From a phage, in the NCBI GenBank assembly GCA_018167975.1, contig GCA_018167975.1_4333.1: a stretch of DNA of 42,822 bases; one strand, 5' to 3'. Within the stretch, counting starts at the first letter, position 1; every line of letters starts with the position of its first letter. This document shows positions 2,759 to 38,815 of this stretch, piece after piece. The position numbers were made by a program, and so were the translations under genes. The notes below the pieces were generated by a model. That model was not told the origin of the DNA. It ran no database searches and saw only the letters and a program-made list of their open reading frames with translations.

Positions 2759-3219
2759 AAGTTTATTACCCCGCGTTTGGCGCAACGCCTGTACTCTTCT
2801 CCGTTAGGATAATAATAATCCCACTCGTGTTTGCATTTCTGCGTATCGTTTTTAGGTTTATATTCCTTGTCGTCCCACTCACGCGCACCCCATTCACAGC
2901 AAAACCGACTACCAGGCACGTTATCCTTGTGGCCTTCCGCAATAAACAATCCGGGAGCGATAATCCAATTGTGGTCGCATTCCTGAACGTCTTCTTTACG
3001 GCAACCGGATTGCTCCTGTTTGCGTAGAACTTTGTAAGCCTCAACGTCCCCGTTCATTAACGTTATAGTCCCCATCAACTCGTCAACCACCTCTGACACA
3101 TCACGTAACTGATTCTTAAGTGACTGCACCTCGTGCGCCAGGTCTTCGCACTGGTTGCTATTTACCTGCTGCCGTAACTGGTCAATCAGGTACTCGAATA
3201 CTTCGTTTTTAGTGTTCAT
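2755..3219 (-). CDS. Hypothetical protein with coiled-coil N-terminus and Cys/His-rich C-terminal domain (possible zinc binding)
   Basis: ATG at 3217-3219; C-terminal half has CRKEDVQECDH...FCCEW...CKHEW...RRC pattern. Confidence 0.5.
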   Translation of the reverse strand: MNTKNEVFEYLIDQLRQQVNSNQCEDLAHEVQSLKNQLRDVSEVVDELMGTITLMNGDVEAYKVLRKQEQSGCRKEDVQECDHNWIIAPGLFIAEGHKDNVPGSRFCCEWGAREWDDKEYKPKNDTQKCKHEWDYYYPNGEEYRRCAKRGVINL

Positions 3220-3337: not shown

Positions 3338-3368
3338 CTTTTGTCTCTCCTCTCGTTTGTGTAAATGA

Positions 3369-3916: not shown

Positions 3917-4183
3917 TTAGCCCATCTTCTCTTTAACGTGTACCCAGAATTCACCGCAATACCAACACCACATAAGATTAGGTGTCTCGCGAACCCAACC
4001 GTAATCCCCGCGTGCGCGAATCGGGATAATGCCTTTAATGAAATAATAACCTGTTCGCAGAAACTCAGGGTCGCGCGTCGCGGTGCGCCACATGTTATAA
4101 AACTGCTCCAGCCCGGCACCCCGACGCATGACCCGTACCTTATGAAGGGTGTCAGAGACTTTTTCCAGTTCAGTATTATTCAT
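3917..4183 (-). CDS. Hypothetical protein
   Basis: ORF 3917..4231; ATG at 4181-4183 with GGAG RBS about 10 nt upstream. Confidence 0.4.
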   Translation of the reverse strand: MNNTELEKVSDTLHKVRVMRRGAGLEQFYNMWRTATRDPEFLRTGYYFIKGIIPIRARGDYGWVRETPNLMWCWYCGEFWVHVKEKMG

Positions 4184-4385
4184 AACTAATAACTCCGATA
4201 ACTTTAGATTTCTCGCGCCGGGTGCAACCATGTTCGATGTAGTAGCGCGCCTGCTTGACGCTTTCGCAACGGGTCAGAGTAACCCACCAGAAAAAGCCAA
4301 CGCGAACCTGCACGGCAGGTGTAATTCGTTTCTCACCGAAGGCGGTAACCCACTCTTCGCTAACTATGCGGTATTTACTTAACAC
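4176..4385 (-). CDS. Hypothetical protein
   Basis: ORF 4176..4421; GTG at 4383-4385 preceded by GGGAGG (rc of 4391-4396) at 5-nt spacing. Confidence 0.35.
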   Translation of the reverse strand: MLSKYRIVSEEWVTAFGEKRITPAVQVRVGFFWWVTLTRCESVKQARYYIEHGCTRREKSKVIGVISYE

Positions 4386-4796: not shown

Positions 4797-4830
4797 AACC
4801 CTCACTCCTCTGTCTCGTTTCGATAAGTGA

Positions 4831-4859
4831 ATAGTATCCTATTATGTTGGGGTGTGCAA
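4831..4859 (-). promoter_or_regulatory. Sigma70-like promoter (minus strand): -35 TTGCAC, 17-bp spacer, -10 TACTAT, with embedded AATAG-N4-CTATT palindrome
   Basis: rc of 4854-4859 = TTGCAC, rc of 4831-4836 = TACTAT; the 37 nt 4824-4860 are an exact reverse-complement copy of 26105-26141. Confidence 0.55.
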
Positions 4860-8338: not shown

Positions 8339-8362
8339 AAAGAAAGGGGCGTTAAGCCCCTT
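8333..8362. terminator. Bidirectional hairpin terminator between convergent genes
   Basis: Stem AGGGGC (8345-8350) / GCCCCT (8356-8361), loop GTTAA; A-rich tract upstream on the plus strand gives a U-tract for the minus-strand (Cro-like gene) transcript. Confidence 0.5.
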
Positions 8363-8567
8363 CACCGAACGCCAGCCACTTGGCGTCTACTTCCAGCACT
8401 TCCGCCAGTTTAAACAGCGTCGCCGGGCGGACGTCCTGAGTTACTCCAAGTGCCAGCTGGTTAATTACGCCCTGGGAAACGCCAGCCAGGACAGCAAGAC
8501 GGCGCTGGGAGATGCCGAGTTCTTTACGACGTTGTTCTACACGGATGCCTAGTTCAGATGGTTGCAT
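8352..8567 (-). CDS. Cro/CI-type (XRE-family) HTH transcriptional regulator
   Basis: 71 aa; ELGISQRRLAVLAGVSQGVINQL is a canonical XRE HTH; AAGGAG RBS; divergently transcribed from the rightward early promoter at 8632-8661. Confidence 0.7.
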   Translation of the reverse strand: MQPSELGIRVEQRRKELGISQRRLAVLAGVSQGVINQLALGVTQDVRPATLFKLAEVLEVDAKWLAFGEGA

Positions 8568-8598
8568 GTCAATTACTCCTTAGTCAGTTGATATGTGA

Positions 8599-17315: not shown

Positions 17316-17348
17316 AGAAAAGGCCCCGTTTGGGGCCTTAGTTTTATG
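17316..17348. terminator. Bidirectional Rho-independent terminator at convergence of replication (plus) and structural (minus) modules
   Basis: AAGGCCCC-GTTT-GGGGCCTT (17320-17339) followed by TAGTTTTATG on the plus strand and by TTTCTCTACT on the minus strand. Confidence 0.65.
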
Positions 17349-34343: not shown

Positions 34344-34607
34344 CTATTCCAGAATATTCCTCACGTAATCCTGCAACATGAACACCTTCAGCCTCAGTTG
34401 CCGTACGCATTCTGCATTCTGAACGTCGGTAGCCAAATCCTCGTCCGCGTCGCTACTTGGTAGTGCCAGTTTGCACGGCGGCTGCATCATCGTCGTATCC
34501 GGGGATGGAATTGGCGTTTGCGACGGCGCGGGACTTGAGCAGGACGCGAGCATCATCGAAAGTGCACACGCTGCGGCCAGGCGTTTTAACGTACTTAACG
34601 ACTTCAC
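34344..34607 (-). CDS. Outer-membrane spanin (Rz1-like lipoprotein), overlapping the i-spanin gene in another frame
   Basis: GTG start at 34605-34607 with GAGGTGA RBS; signal peptide ending in lipobox LASC; Pro-rich mature region SSPAPSQTPIPSPD. Confidence 0.6.
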   Translation of the reverse strand: MKSLSTLKRLAAACALSMMLASCSSPAPSQTPIPSPDTTMMQPPCKLALPSSDADEDLATDVQNAECVRQLRLKVFMLQDYVRNILE

Positions 34608-34839
34608 GGGTGATCACCTCTGATTTCGTCTTGCCTTCGTTGTCAGCGGCTGCGGCCTTCGATTCATCCTGCTGCTGCCGTTGTGTTTTCTTCGCTAACT
34701 CAGCCTGTGCTTTCTGCTGTTGCTGCGAAACGAGATTCGCCTGGCCTTCGTGCCACCCGCTGTGGTATTGAAAGTAGCCGTGTGCGTATAACAGGATGAT
34801 GAAACATGCTCCTGCTACGACAGTTGCTTTAAGATTCAT
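34453..34839 (-). CDS. Inner-membrane spanin (Rz-like)
   Basis: N-terminal TM (VVAGACFIILLYA) followed by Gln/Ala/Lys-rich coiled coil; AAGGAG RBS; contains the out-of-frame Rz1-like ORF. Confidence 0.65.
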   Translation of the reverse strand: MNLKATVVAGACFIILLYAHGYFQYHSGWHEGQANLVSQQQQKAQAELAKKTQRQQQDESKAAAADNEGKTKSEVITREVVKYVKTPGRSVCTFDDARVLLKSRAVANANSIPGYDDDAAAVQTGTTK

Positions 34840-35090
34840 GTTTCTCCTTTCTCGATAAGTAAAGCCCCGCCATAAAGCGGGGCGCTAGTCCTTATCATTT
34901 AAACATAGAAACGGCGTAATCTCAGTAAACCAGTTACTTTTTACACAAGCAATAGAGTATGGCCCTTCCGAACGCGTCAGCGTAACTACACTCAGGACTT
35001 ACGTCCCGCTTCGTTACCTGCCCGCGCCGCGGTCGCTTGTTCATACTTCACAAGCTCAGGTGAAGCTTAGCATATTTTTAGTGAAAAGTC

Positions 35091-35106
35091 AACTATTCGA
35101 ATAGTT
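35091..35106. promoter_or_regulatory. Perfect 16-bp palindrome AACTATTCGAATAGTT (candidate regulator binding site)
   Basis: Self-complementary; shares the GAATAG/CTATTC half-site with the promoter-embedded palindromes; lies in the 380-bp intergenic region upstream of Rz and the 35222 moron. Confidence 0.4.
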
Positions 35107-35158
35107 TATTCCGACATTTACAATTGAGGGTAATAACTGGAATACGTAAACAAATAGT

Positions 35159-35187
35159 TTGCACACCCCAACATAATAGGGTACTAT
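35159..35187 (+). promoter_or_regulatory. Sigma70-like promoter: -35 TTGCAC, 17-bp spacer, -10 TACTAT, palindrome AATAGGGTACTATT
   Basis: TTGCAC 35159-35164, TACTAT 35182-35187; near-identical to the promoters at 26106 and 4831 (rc). Confidence 0.6.
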
Positions 35188-35221
35188 TCATTACATCGAA
35201 ACGAGAGATAAGGAATTTAGA

Positions 35222-35441
35222 GATGAACAAAGCTACCGCAAACGTGGTCCGCGCTATCGAAGAACTTTACGGCATTGATATCGCGAGCCGTGTGCTTATC
35301 GGAAACAAACGTAACTTTTTTACCTTTTGCACGGATGGTATGGAAGAGAACGATTTTAACAACGTTCAACGTTTTGCTAACGAACACGGTCTACGCAACG
35401 AGCCAGCAGGTTACAAGAAATTCGCTATATTCTTTAAATAA
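35222..35441 (+). CDS. Hypothetical protein encoded by a rightward moron
   Basis: ORF 35124..35441; ATG at 35222 with AAGGAA RBS; own promoter and terminator; opposite in orientation to the flanking head genes. Confidence 0.5.
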
Positions 35442-35470
35442 AACTAAGGCCCCGAAAGGGGCCTTTTATC
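35442..35470. terminator. Bidirectional Rho-independent terminator between convergent genes
   Basis: AAGGCCCC-GAAA-GGGGCCTT (35446-35465), U-tracts on both strands. Confidence 0.65.
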
Positions 35471-35930
35471 ATTCCGGCTTAGTGACCTTCGCCGCTTTAC
35501 TCACAGCCTCTACACCATCGGCATCAGTAACTTTAACGAAGTATTCGCCCGCAGCGTTAACCGTCAGAGACAAAGCCTCTTCCGGGGCGTTTACCACTTC
35601 CTTACCGTCTTTGTACCAGGTCAGCGCATACGGTGCTTTGCCTGCCTTAACTTCGACAGTGATAGTTGCGCTGCCGTCTGCCAGTTCAGCGTCTTTCGGT
35701 TGCACAGAGAAATACACATCGCCTGCGTCCACCAGATACGGAATCTCGTAAAGCATACCCGCTGCGGGTAGTGCAATACCGGTTTTATCTGCAAAAGGCA
35801 TGTCGTCTACTGGTGTACCTAGTACACTTTCGTCCCCAATAGACACCACGTTCTCACCGGAGCCAGACACACGAGCAAACTGGACTACACGACGTGAAGG
35901 CACATCAGTTACTTTGAAAAAGCCCATCAT
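35469..35930 (-). CDS. Ig-like domain structural protein
   Basis: ATITVEVKAGKAPYALTWYKDGKEV...AGEYFVKVTDADG shows Ig-like pattern; ATGA-type coupling with the head morphogenesis gene. Confidence 0.5.
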   Translation of the reverse strand: MMGFFKVTDVPSRRVVQFARVSGSGENVVSIGDESVLGTPVDDMPFADKTGIALPAAGMLYEIPYLVDAGDVYFSVQPKDAELADGSATITVEVKAGKAPYALTWYKDGKEVVNAPEEALSLTVNAAGEYFVKVTDADGVEAVSKAAKVTKPE

Positions 35931-36973
35931 TAATCCCCTTTCAGATAATCAGCGACACGTTTATCGAGTTCCGCCATCTGCTTAAGCGTGAGCGGATTCC
36001 CGAAACCATCTACAGATATTACGCGAAACTCTTCCGGCGATATACCGCTGTTACGGAAAATCTTACCGCGAACAGGGCCGAGTGCCTCATCGATAAACCA
36101 CGCCGGTTGTTGTTTCAGGAACTCGTAATAGGTTGTGTCCGCGCTTACCTGGGTTCCACCTTCTGCACCCTTAGCTGCGCGTTTTGCGCCCTTATCGAGG
36201 AAGTCGAACTCTGAACTGATTACCGGTGCCGTGGTGCTTCTGCACCCAAAATGGGCCGGAGGCATCGGCCCTTTCCCAATTTCCCACGTCATTCCGTCTC
36301 TCGCCCTGCAAATCGTACTGGTACGGCTGTCCAGTGTTGACACCCACTCGTACCTCTCGATGATATCGTCGTTCTGGCGGTACGTCTCGTTACGTGCTTC
36401 GTTGGATACGTGAGACAGCGCGGTGCGGATTACTGTAGCAGCGTATTTCTCTGATACGTCAGCCAGCCCACCTTTACCGACTACTTCTGTAACAATCTGT
36501 CGTGTTGTCTTACCCTGAACAAAGCCCATCTTAACTCCGGTTACAAGACGTGCTACTTCGGTTTCACCCCATCCCGACATCAGTTTAGTGAAGTCAACAG
36601 GCTTGCCACTTAACGATAACGGCTGAAACTCGGCAGCAGCCCACACCTGTTCGGCGGTAGGAGTAACAAATTCCGTGTCTACGTTGGTGGCCAGCGTCTT
36701 TACGTTCCACTCAGCCTCATACGCCGCCAGCTCCTTAAGGTCTTCTGTCAGCTTTGTTTGCCAGTCACCTGTAAGCCCGGTCAGTGCTTCTTCCAGGTCG
36801 CGTAATAGTTTATTCAGTCGCGAGGTGCTTCGCCCGTCGTCACCGAATAGCAGCACCTGCCGTTTGATTTCATCTCGCATTTCCTGAATGAAGGGTGTGA
36901 GGTCTTTCACTTCCCCGGACGCGGTGCGTTGCATCCATATCTGGTGACTGATTAGAGATGTAAGTAAGCTCAT
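35930..36973 (-). CDS. Head morphogenesis protein (SPP1 gp7 / Mu F-like minor capsid protein)
   Basis: ORF 35930..37030; ATG at 36971-36973 with GGAGG RBS; C-terminal TSTICRARDGMTWEIGKGPMPPAHFGCRSTT is the family hallmark. Confidence 0.75.
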   Translation of the reverse strand: MSLLTSLISHQIWMQRTASGEVKDLTPFIQEMRDEIKRQVLLFGDDGRSTSRLNKLLRDLEEALTGLTGDWQTKLTEDLKELAAYEAEWNVKTLATNVDTEFVTPTAEQVWAAAEFQPLSLSGKPVDFTKLMSGWGETEVARLVTGVKMGFVQGKTTRQIVTEVVGKGGLADVSEKYAATVIRTALSHVSNEARNETYRQNDDIIERYEWVSTLDSRTSTICRARDGMTWEIGKGPMPPAHFGCRSTTAPVISSEFDFLDKGAKRAAKGAEGGTQVSADTTYYEFLKQQPAWFIDEALGPVRGKIFRNSGISPEEFRVISVDGFGNPLTLKQMAELDKRVADYLKGD

Positions 36974-37017
36974 ATGCCCTCCTATAGTACCGCCAGTGTA
37001 ACGCATAAAAATAGTAT

Positions 37018-37046
37018 TTGCAGGCACCAATATAATAGGGTACTAT
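37018..37046 (+). promoter_or_regulatory. Sigma70-like promoter: -35 TTGCAG, 17-bp spacer, -10 TACTAT, palindrome AATAGGGTACTATT
   Basis: TTGCAG 37018-37023, TACTAT 37041-37046; followed by CAGGAGGG RBS and the ATG at 37072. Confidence 0.55.
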
Positions 37047-37071
37047 TCAGTTAACTTAAACAGGAGGGTGT

Positions 37072-37317
37072 ATGCAGGAATTACCTAGTTGCGAACGTGA
37101 GTTCATTGGCGGGTTCATACCGGTTAATAATCTCAGTATATCGGACTTATTTGACCTAAGAGAAAATGGCAGACTTTGGGTGTGCAATGCGAAAGATGCT
37201 TCAAAAGCTAGAGTATGGAACTTTAGTTTAATGCGCCGTCCGAACAAATCTGGCGAAGGTGCTGTCGGTATGGATTTGTTGCAACGCAAAGGTAAGCTAT
37301 TTATGAGAGTGCGATAA
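37072..37317 (+). CDS. Hypothetical protein encoded by a rightward moron
   Basis: 81 aa; own promoter, RBS AGGAGGG and terminator; sits between portal and head morphogenesis genes on the opposite strand. Confidence 0.5.
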   Translation: MQELPSCEREFIGGFIPVNNLSISDLFDLRENGRLWVCNAKDASKARVWNFSLMRRPNKSGEGAVGMDLLQRKGKLFMRVR

Positions 37318-37318
37318 A

Positions 37319-37348
37319 ACTAAGGCCCCTTACGGGGCCTTTTCTCTA
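37319..37348. terminator. Bidirectional Rho-independent terminator
   Basis: AAGGCCCC-TTAC-GGGGCCTT (37322-37341) followed by TTCTCT on plus; overlaps the portal stop codon. Confidence 0.6.
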
Positions 37349-38815
37349 CTCCTGTTGCTGTGCTGACTGCGGAATCTCCCCCGCCACCTGAGTAACAGCG
37401 CCTAACGGCACAGGTGCGTCCTCAATCGCCGTTGTAATCTCCTCGTCGGTCCAGTCAGTTACCCCGGCCTTACGCAGCGCGGAGTAGTAGGCGGTTGCTG
37501 GCAGTAAACCAGCGTTAATGTCTGCCATCCACTGTGCGCGGTCTTGCGCCGTCATCGGTTGCAGGAAGAACTCCATGTTCAGCTTGAACTCAATTTCCGT
37601 GCCTTCGCGCAAGCCCAGCATAGCAGCCACCCAACGCAACGCCTCTGTGTATGCCATGCTTACGTTACGCGCAATGGTTGCCATTACGGATGTATCAGCG
37701 CCACGTTGCAGGCGGGCTGATTCAGCGGTAATCTGCTGCGTCGGCGTGATAAGCTGCGCACCAATCTGGATGGCCTGATTCTCTTTATCCAGCATGTTCT
37801 GTTTGGCGAGGTTGTTCTCTCCGGCCTGAACCAGAAACGCATTGCCGCCGTAACCGATGTTATGGCCTGAGCGCGACCCCATGCGCACGCCGTGAGGGTT
37901 GGCTTCCGCCCACTGTTCCATGCTCATGTTCTCGCCCGGGGCAATAAACAGAGTCGGCTGGCCTACGACAAAGCTGGATTCCTCATTATCTGCGCTGTTG
38001 CGGAAATGCCCAATATTAAGCTCCGCCAACGGCAGCAAAGGGGCGTCGTCGATAGTAGCGTCGTTGTTGCTTGCGCCAATGAACGTGAACGGGATTTTGC
38101 CGCGTAACTGTTCGCCGAGTTCCGGGAAGATTTCGATTACTTCGTCCTGAGCGCCACCCTCGGCATCGAAGCGGTAAATGCGCTGGCGGTAGCGACCATC
38201 AATCAGGTCGAGGACACGATATTGCTCACCGAACTTGGTTTCGAACTCTGCACCAGGTTCTGAGTATTCCCATACTTCGCGCAACACGACCATAGTCACA
38301 CGGTTAACTGAACCGACGCGTGTCAGCCGCCAGTTGATGATGTTCTCCGCGGTATAGAATGCGATGACCGGGTTTAATAATCCCGCGTTCTGCTCCGCCG
38401 CCGTTGCTGCGGCTGTCTCCGGGGCGTCCACCAGCAACCCACCGCGGCCTACCGAGTCAATCTCCATTAGCGTATCCTGCGCGTGCTGCCACAGCCCGAC
38501 GCCCGAACCGTCGGCATTACGTAACAGGTACCCCAGTTCAGGCGGAATAATCTGTTCAGGGTCTTTGCGCATCACCGACCCAACCATCCCCGCCAGGGTA
38601 CGTTTGGTGAAGTTGTAGCAGATAGCGCCGTTCTCGTATTCTTCCTGGCGCTGCGCCGCGTAGGTAGGGTCAGGCTCGTTCTTCCCGACATTGCGCAGAT
38701 AACGAATAAGGTCGCCTTCCAGCGCATGACGTACCTTCTGCCATTTATCGAAGTGATGCAGCCATTCCCGGTGTTTTGTCTTAACACCCTGATTCTGACC
38801 GTTCATAGTTAACAT
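37346..38815 (-). CDS. Portal protein
   Basis: 489 aa directly downstream of the large terminase gene; AGAGGA RBS; assignment by synteny and size. Confidence 0.75.
   Translation of the reverse strand: MLTMNGQNQGVKTKHREWLHHFDKWQKVRHALEGDLIRYLRNVGKNEPDPTYAAQRQEEYENGAICYNFTKRTLAGMVGSVMRKDPEQIIPPELGYLLRNADGSGVGLWQHAQDTLMEIDSVGRGGLLVDAPETAAATAAEQNAGLLNPVIAFYTAENIINWRLTRVGSVNRVTMVVLREVWEYSEPGAEFETKFGEQYRVLDLIDGRYRQRIYRFDAEGGAQDEVIEIFPELGEQLRGKIPFTFIGASNNDATIDDAPLLPLAELNIGHFRNSADNEESSFVVGQPTLFIAPGENMSMEQWAEANPHGVRMGSRSGHNIGYGGNAFLVQAGENNLAKQNMLDKENQAIQIGAQLITPTQQITAESARLQRGADTSVMATIARNVSMAYTEALRWVAAMLGLREGTEIEFKLNMEFFLQPMTAQDRAQWMADINAGLLPATAYYSALRKAGVTDWTDEEITTAIEDAPVPLGAVTQVAGEIPQSAQQQE

Follow-up and report, generated by a model that had tools for sequence, protein, structure and literature searches.

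An Ip9-family gene without a capsid-targeting sequence in a promoter-marked accessory cassette of a Kagunavirus

The internal proteins of phage T4 carry an MKTYQEFIAE-like N-terminus which serves as a capsid-targeting sequence (CTS) (PMC3012670; PMC12373910). In T-even internal proteins this packaging signal ends in Glu, and their genes are located in the ipI locus, next to 57A/57B, or in the ipII/ipIII loci of the Tevenvirinae. T4 Ip1, Ip2 and Ip3 act as inhibitors of three different GmrSD type IV restriction enzymes, one for each protein (PMC12373910), and Bas37_0260, another internal protein from the ipI locus, blocks McrBC (bioRxiv 10.1101/2025.11.20.689424), so that all four internal proteins characterised to date are inhibitors of type IV restriction. 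In the T4-type phages RB49 and phi1, promoter-early stem-loop (PeSL) cassettes are described as shuffling ORFans (PMC2839356). The locus considered here occupies positions 35159-35470 of a 42,822-nucleotide phage contig (GCA_018167975.1_4333.1; 'the window' refers to this whole stretch) and is, as judged from its layout, a self-contained accessory cassette of putative promoter, gene and terminator lying between the spanin and Hoc-like head genes. Its 72-amino-acid product is by homology a member of the Ip9 family that lacks the CTS.

The protein matches the profile PHROG 7673, labelled 'internal head protein', with an E-value of 2.9e-25, its residues 2-72 covering profile positions 20-90 of 90. 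A tblastn search recovered homologues in 171 phage records, among them about 158 T4-like genomes, at 51-56% identity, and 12 of Kagunavirus type, at 78-95%, the E-values to the T-even copies being about 1e-21. The first-pass annotation of this DNA had seen no recognisable motif in the product, a statement which these matches overturn, although a Pfam search of the 72-amino-acid protein found no family; the homology search and structure prediction which it had proposed led to the Ip9 family and to a confident, compact model. Identity to RB15 Ip9 and its T-even relatives is 46-56% over the whole mature domain, and the name Ip9 is that used in UniRef and GenBank (RB15, IME08, VR20). In Mosigvirus SF the homologous gene lies directly after those for dNMP kinase, 57A and 57B and beside that of another internal protein, which is the classical ipI locus. 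The SF homologue is 87 residues long and begins with MKTFNEFISE-SSGVK followed by INKAVNQV, the latter aligned to MNKATANV of the window protein, while the neighbouring SF internal protein (gp049) and Bas37_0260 show the canonical MKTYQEFIAE. In an alignment of 24 sequences, in which 12 complete T-even and 11 Kagunavirus proteins were counted, the CTS motif MKT[YF]xEFIxE is present in every T-even protein (12/12) and in none of the Kagunavirus proteins (0/11), all 11 of which begin at the residue following the CTS and linker. On this evidence the product is a CTS-less Ip9-family protein.

AlphaFold2, supplied with the 24-sequence alignment, predicts a compact alpha-beta-beta-alpha-beta-beta fold (pLDDT 90.8, pTM 0.77) which consists of a helix (residues 3-16), two strands (24-26 and 32-36), a second helix (42-54) and two further strands (58-61 and 66-70). 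The T-even Ip9 proteins (RB15; IME08, VR20) are homologous to the window protein over the whole length of their mature domain, are of the same size and share this predicted fold, and their gene is, like that of the window, a non-essential and sporadic one in a hyperplastic locus. Unlike them, the window protein has neither CTS nor linker and is presumably not injected but synthesised once infection has begun, and its gene is found with its own promoter-like element and terminator between Rz and the Hoc-like gene of a Guernseyvirinae siphovirus, not in the ipI locus of the Straboviridae. Ip1, Ip2, Ip3 and Bas37_0260, which provide the sole functional precedent, are of one class with T-even Ip9, that of small, variable and non-essential T-even proteins, and their genes lie next to those of Ip9 type in the ipI locus, but the four show no sequence similarity to the window protein, and the CTS which they share with T-even Ip9 is absent from it. 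The idea that Bas37_0260 is itself Ip9 was discarded, as the alignment by hhalign does not extend beyond the 12-residue CTS in the T-even rows.

The window gene and its Bas70 counterpart are 77% identical in DNA, with dN of 0.129, dS of 1.67 and dN/dS of about 0.08, which indicates long-standing purifying selection. The GC content of the gene (42.5%) lies between that of the T-even homologue (34%) and that of the window (50.6%), the neighbouring genes having 51-57%; such an intermediate value would fit an origin in an AT-rich gene pool. In one assembly of BCH953P1 (OZ035754), the T-run AACTTTTTTACC, homologous to window positions 35311-35316, is two bases longer and splits the tblastn match; it may be either a homopolymer sequencing error or a frameshifted allele.

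When 1.84 billion representatives were searched exhaustively with the profile, only 26 clusters were returned, of which one, with LysM, is a false positive. Within this wider family some N-termini are CTS-like and some have no such sequence, and a few members have the domain embedded in larger phage proteins, of which one of 861 amino acids (PHROG 3867) gave no clue to function. Only R50 and G63 are invariant across the wider family, as is typical of a small and fast-evolving one. A word-indexed protein search found close relatives alone; a profile search of PDB sequences, which are assumed to include the solved IPI* structure, gave noise only at E<=10 and no relevant match; and a Foldseek search of BFVD gave a single match below 1e-3, to an unnamed viral protein of 535 amino acids. 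The contigs that carry the remote CTS-less members are too short for their gene contexts to be informative.

CTS-less Ip9-family genes were also found in Seuratvirus (Queuovirinae), at 3992-4216 in KS_A3 and at 3001-3219 in ECP2304, the latter match having no gene annotation, and both lie among small early genes near the primase. Like the window protein, these are stand-alone proteins (71-79 amino acids) without a CTS which are encoded among the small early genes of a siphovirus; unlike it, they belong to the Queuovirinae, share only about 30-41% identity and are not encoded in a promoter- and terminator-delimited slot of the structural module. Their position would imply that the domain works without injection in other lineages (at least two). 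Within the T-even locus, 'Ip7' of phage OLB35 is a chimera in which the N-terminal half resembles the other internal protein of the SF ipI locus (KGSKAKIKS motif) and the C-terminal 40 residues are Ip9-like, which points to recombination between internal protein genes. Phage Av-05 (NC_025830; 121 kilobases) encodes a CTS-bearing Ip9 one residue different from the Mosigvirus SF protein in a T4-like neighbourhood of nudix hydrolase, lysozyme-type hydrolase and HNH endonuclease genes; its Vequintavirinae/Avunavirus label and its gene content look inconsistent.

The features of the cassette and its surroundings are listed in Table 1. In the 5' untranslated region the ribosome-binding site (RBS) AAGGA (35210-35214) lies 8 nucleotides 5' of the ATG at 35223, a good spacing. 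The first half of this region is common to the early-locus promoter copy at 4830(-) and the second half, which holds the RBS, is common to the early-locus ip9-like gene of Bas70. The first-pass annotation had placed a single plus-strand gene here, and its open reading frame (ORF), RBS and terminator are real, but the start at 35222 and the length of 73 amino acids were wrong: that frame contains stop codons, and the gene begins at 35223 and encodes 72 amino acids. A longer ORF from a TTG at 35124 (105 amino acids) was rejected because the promoter would fall within it and every homologue begins at MNKAT, and minus-strand ORFs within the cassette (35217-35387 and others) gain no support from conservation. 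The terminator was called on both strands and, as had been anticipated, also closes the convergent Hoc-like gene, whose stop codon (35469-35471, minus strand) is 3 nucleotides away from the stem. Terminators of this family are repeated at 35438-35470 and 37314-37346 and, in reverse orientation, at 17318-17348 and 27935-27965. An Rfam search of 34780-35520 returned the terminator hairpin alone, with a score under the threshold.

Table 1 Features of the ip9-like cassette, its neighbours and related elements, in window coordinates
Feature	Position	Strand	Basis or remark
Class-A promoter-like block TTGCACACCCCAACATAATAGGGTACTATTCA	35159-35190	+	TTGCAC (-35), 17 nucleotides, TACTAT (-10, 35182-35187); recurrence
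5' untranslated region TTACATCGAAACGAGA then GATAAGGAATTTAGAG, with RBS AAGGA	35191-35222	+	Comparison with the 4830(-) copy and Bas70
ip9-like coding sequence, 72 amino acids	35223-35441	+	PHROG 7673, tblastn, alignment to CTS-bearing T-even proteins including RB15 Ip9, AlphaFold2 model, dN/dS
Bidirectional intrinsic terminator AAGGCCCC-GAAA-GGGGCCTT	35446-35465	both	Terminator scan, local fold of -16.6 kcal/mol
Rz-like i-spanin gene	34453-34839	-	Homologues annotated in K1H, fBC-Eco01 and Bas70; left neighbour of the slot
Embedded o-spanin gene	within 34344-34607	-	Rz/Rz1 together 34344-34839
Conserved non-coding block	34886-35140		About 255 nucleotides; constant left flank of the slot
Hoc-like (Ig-like) head decoration gene	35469-35930	-	PHROG 3945, E 1.5e-84; K1H and K1ind2 annotations; convergent right border of the slot
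Mu-F/SPP1-gp7-like head morphogenesis gene	35930-37030	-	
Portal gene	37346-38815	-	
Promoter copy heading the small-gene operon	4828-4859	-	Alternative insertion site, with the ip9-like gene there in 10 relatives
Promoter copy of the third plus-strand cassette	26106-26137	+	31/32 identity to 35159-35190
Sister cassette	37018-37341	+	Same promoter type, 81-amino-acid ORF (37072-37317), same terminator type; between the head morphogenesis and portal genes

The region 34840-35480 matched 183 phage records at 90-97% identity, nearly all of them from Escherichia Kagunavirus or Salmonella Jerseyvirus (Guernseyvirinae), and these matches assign the window to Kagunavirus as a virulent siphophage. Kagunaviruses are lytic siphoviruses by description and the full annotation of a close relative contains no integrase. 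The minus strand codes for the structural and lysis genes of the window, namely Rz/Rz1 and the Hoc-like, head morphogenesis and portal genes. No methyltransferase domain was found in the three window ORFs standing where Bas70 has a DNA methyltransferase, the rest of the window not having been scanned exhaustively.

The promoter-like block at 35159-35190, which includes the palindrome AATAGGGTACTATT at 35175-35188, is identical in 31/32 positions to 26106-26137 and likewise to minus-strand positions 4859-4828, and further, clearly related copies occur at 37018-37049, 3368(-) and 8598(-). Each of these six class-A copies lies 30-70 nucleotides 5' of a start codon, and PHIRE has annotated a 'phage promoter' at the homologous site of fBC-Eco01. 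Judging from this recurrence before six gene starts, from its position and from the PHIRE annotation, the block probably functions as a promoter. The first-pass annotation had described it as a near-identical copy of a moron promoter; the near-identical copies are indeed present, but the element is not specific to morons, as it is also found in front of a Cro/C1-type regulator gene and, at 4859(-), of the small-gene operon. Overall, the class-A type precedes this operon, the gene for the helix-turn-helix (HTH) regulator and three cassettes antisense to the late genes, and never a structural gene. Thirteen copies of the core palindrome AATAG-N4-CTATT are present in the window, where 1.0 would be expected, and no shuffle yielded as many as 13. 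A second promoter class with the consensus-like sequence TTGACA-17-TATAGT (8643, 10930, 15040) precedes replication genes and has the same palindrome in the opposite orientation.

The HTH gene itself (8355-8567, minus strand; 71 amino acids; HTH_3, E 5e-12) lies between the divergent promoters at 8598(-) and 8643(+), and the quasi-palindrome TGAATAG-N4-CTATTAT is found in both of these and in both promoter classes genome-wide; the palindrome is also seen at 3368, 3526, 4830, 10930, 15040, 26122, 35175 and 37034. A regulator gene between divergent promoters of two classes is a typical regulator/operator layout, which makes the HTH protein and the palindrome a candidate global regulator/operator pair for the early and cassette promoters. 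The ip9-like gene is expected to be transcribed early by the host RNA polymerase and under regulator control, since its promoter type is that of the small-gene operon and of the Cro-like regulator gene and is never found before structural genes, and the bidirectional terminator would insulate it from the Hoc-like gene.

The first-pass annotation had asked for a survey of relatives, and the gene is present in 12/302 related records and absent from about 96% of related phages, which is far from a universal gene with a structural role. The variability of the slot was assessed with an Rz-to-Hoc query by measuring the distance between the flanks in 33 evenly sampled relatives. This ranges from about 1190 to 2342 base pairs, with an empty 1190-base-pair form in 12/33 and at least nine other lengths. 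Other cargos of the Rz-Hoc slot include DpnA/adenine methyltransferase, RusA together with an HNH endonuclease, and hypothetical proteins (ORFans). Multiple alignment shows that in the empty slot of K1ind2 the conserved left flank and terminator are kept and promoter and cargo are both absent; in K1H and fBC-Eco01 the promoter is followed by other ORFs, the ip9-like gene of the window recurs in BCH953P1, and the late-slot arrangement is also found in three metagenomic contigs. The moron-like insertion that had been suggested is thus borne out by flanks which adjoin in K1ind2-type relatives without promoter or cargo, by the variable slot and by the AT-rich gene. In the work of Juhala and Hendrix on HK97 and HK022, a lambdoid moron is reportedly an additional gene, equipped with a promoter and a terminator of its own, that separates two genes which adjoin in related phages. 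The window cassette has the same succession of promoter-like element, gene and terminator, the insertion between genes adjacent in relatives and a deviant base composition, but its carrier is virulent, with no prophage expression or lysogenic conversion, and its promoter belongs to a genome-wide family. Because the phage is virulent, the term moron applies by architecture only.

In ten relatives (Bas70, JSSK01, SHAK7858, CR01, SXAU_B4, UTEC10, M01, AMO_3701M, D1 and EC3-1) the ip9-like gene occupies an early site instead, where it directly follows the promoter copy of the small-gene operon, whose genes diverge from the replication genes. Comparison of the early loci of Bas70 and the window shows gene and RBS inserted exactly between '...TATTCACTTATCGAAACGAGA' and 'CAGAGGAGTGAGGGTTATG'. 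In all ten the insertion falls precisely between the early-locus 5' untranslated region 'cgaaacgaga' and the RBS of the next gene, and more than 100 relatives, as well as the window, are without the ip9-like gene at this point. The window copy has late-slot-specific sequence 5' of the -35 element, and 3' of the promoter it has the same untranslated region and RBS (ATCGAAACGAGA-GATAAGGAATTTAGAGATG) as the early copy of Bas70. The simplest reading of this mosaic is that the gene reached its slot by recombination within the repeated promoter and 5' untranslated region.

The PeSL cassettes offer the closest parallel to this arrangement, having in common with it repeated promoter motifs with an embedded inverted repeat, GC-rich stem-loop terminators flanking ORFans, and the same cargo behind different copies in different genomes, which would imply recombination between the repeats. 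In the window this layout comprises the six class-A copies and four GGCCCC-N4-GGGGCC terminators, which border three plus-strand cassettes and the small-gene operon. It differs from PeSL in its motif sequences, in a promoter that departs from the sigma-70 consensus and in a terminator that is a separate 3' element, and recombination is here read from comparative footprints. The 81-amino-acid ORF of the sister cassette, which has no Pfam or PHROG match, has homologues of 94-96% identity in the Rz-Hoc slot of GZMU_E2010, LM08P2 and RP180 and one of 77% directly after the early promoter of EP-B-K_E2, and has thus been seen in three different slots. Other relatives hold different cargo at the site of the sister cassette (37018-37341), as in L010 with DUF7170 and a 114-amino-acid ORF. 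The third plus-strand cassette (26106-27965) lies within the tail module, ends in a reversed member of the terminator family seen at the ip9-like cassette and encodes a 63-amino-acid Imm_superinfect-like protein (PF14373, E 6e-14), a 376-amino-acid SbcD-like DNA repair exonuclease (PHROG 704) and ORFs of 76 and 72 amino acids.

To the left of the ip9-like cassette, the non-coding block at 34886-35140 is 94-97.5% identical in more than 130 relatives, compared with about 91-92% for the Rz and Hoc-like genes, and is kept where the slot is empty; the block ends at a terminator on the minus strand (34864-34883), immediately upstream of Rz. Rfam gave no match for this block, whose fold z-score is modest (-2.1), and it could be a late-promoter or leader region or a small RNA. 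An ORF of 36-38 amino acids annotated within it (34934-35044, minus strand) is ruled out by single-nucleotide indels between relatives.

With regard to function, it is proposed that the locus is a promoter-shuffled accessory cassette whose cytoplasmic, CTS-less Ip9-family protein inhibits an Escherichia coli defence factor, a reading which appears probable, if modestly so. In the T-evens the Ip9 domain, fused to MKT[YF]xEFIxE, is packed in the head and injected, whereas in Kagunavirus the bare domain would be made in the cytoplasm from a promoter read by the host RNA polymerase, presumably early, and other cargos would move among the promoter-marked slots by the same recombination route. The protein would be a small inhibitor that acts stoichiometrically on an E. 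coli defence factor which threatens incoming or replicating phage DNA. The earlier suggestion of a host-modulating or anti-defence cargo is strengthened by membership of the Ip9 family, but by analogy only, as Ip9 is unrelated in sequence to the characterised internal proteins.

Several points weigh against a counter-defence role. Beyond the CTS there is no shared sequence between Ip9 and Ip1-3 or Bas37_0260, so that the functional analogy rests on locus and delivery mode. Hypermodified DNA is not known from Kagunaviruses, which makes a glucosyl-hydroxymethylcytosine-dependent enzyme an unlikely target. In the literature, ip4-10 gave no reproducible inhibition of GmrSD variants. The TTGCAC-17-TACTAT element matches the sigma-70 consensus at 7/12 positions and a simple promoter scan made no call there. 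An altered sensitivity of Bas70 to the defences tested was considered and rejected: its sensitivity to restriction-modification equals that of Bas71 and Bas72, sensitivity to Old varies without a clear link to the gene, and in the published plating data RexAB, PifA, Fun/Z and Tin have no effect on Bas70 or the sister phages compared with it. The unchanged sensitivity to restriction-modification would make classical type I-III systems an unlikely target. The family spans three coliphage lineages, and the groups to which these belong are reported to have unlike DNA chemistries; if it does counter a defence, the system which it targets is probably enterobacterial and independent of glucosyl-hydroxymethylcytosine.

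The main rival explanation is that the product is an accessory protein with no part in immunity, active in host takeover or nucleic-acid binding, which for example binds DNA or RNA or modulates a host or phage factor of DNA metabolism and thereby confers a growth advantage in some hosts. The conserved basic or polar residues K29, R30, R50, R58, K65 and K66 would suit such a protein, T4 internal proteins are known to touch packaged DNA via lysines (PMC3012670), and Bas70 is unprotected against the restriction-modification systems tested. However, the net charge by residue count is near zero, so that the protein is neither a DNA mimic nor strongly basic, the structure searches recovered no nucleic-acid-binding fold, and the sporadic distribution, rapid divergence (26 representative clusters) and hot-spot location are more like those of arms-race genes; this explanation is therefore regarded as rather doubtful. 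A role in competition between phages or in superinfection, directed at co-infecting T-even or other coliphages, is improbable. It is suggested by the Imm_superinfect-like gene (PF14373) of a sister cassette with the same promoter and by the occurrence of the family in three lineages of coliphage which share hosts and meet there, but injection together with the DNA, as in the T-evens, fits the protection of an incoming genome better than the exclusion of a competitor, and the modelled 72-amino-acid soluble fold has no membrane or exclusion-type features.

It is very improbable that the product is a genuine internal head protein of the Kagunavirus virion, as the label of PHROG 7673, the annotation 'internal head protein' in Bas70 and SHAK7858 and the adjoining head genes of the window would have it. 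The CTS that defines the packaging of T-even internal proteins is absent, the gene is antisense to the head genes and has the promoter type of small non-structural genes, about 96% of related phages do without it, and 10/12 Kagunavirus records carry it in the small-gene operon by the replication genes, not among head genes. The label was transferred from CTS-bearing T-even members and is very probably misleading for the CTS-less siphovirus copies. That the ORF is a decaying or non-functional hitch-hiker, in a slot which matters for transcription termination or insulation alone, is scarcely credible: the apparent T-run frameshift in one BCH953P1 assembly would fit, but the dN/dS of 0.08 with saturated synonymous sites, the full-length copies conserved in three phage lineages and the confident fold prediction do not.

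Extending the counter-defence reading, it is tentatively suggested that the Ip9 domain is a delivery-agnostic counter-defence module of T-evens, Seuratvirus and Kagunavirus, lineages with differing DNA modifications or none known, in which the CTS is itself a module gained or lost on horizontal transfer. If so, T-evens would add the tag for injection and siphoviruses would express the protein early from recombination-prone, promoter-marked slots, and the target would be an E. coli defence that is independent of the kind of DNA modification rather than a type IV enzyme specific for glucosyl-hydroxymethylcytosine. The CTS-less copies in themselves suggest a target which is not tied to glucosyl-hydroxymethylcytosine DNA, and they show the capsid-targeting tag to be a separable module. 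A varied set of injected anti-restriction proteins is coming to light among the T-even internal proteins, and the untagged Ip9 homologues of small, tractable siphoviruses, with Bas70 carrying the gene and Bas71-76 without it in the public BASEL collection, may provide a handle on the function of Ip9. For the Guernseyvirinae, phages which are used for therapy and synthetic biology, the locus points to PeSL-like, promoter-mediated shuffling of cargo genes.

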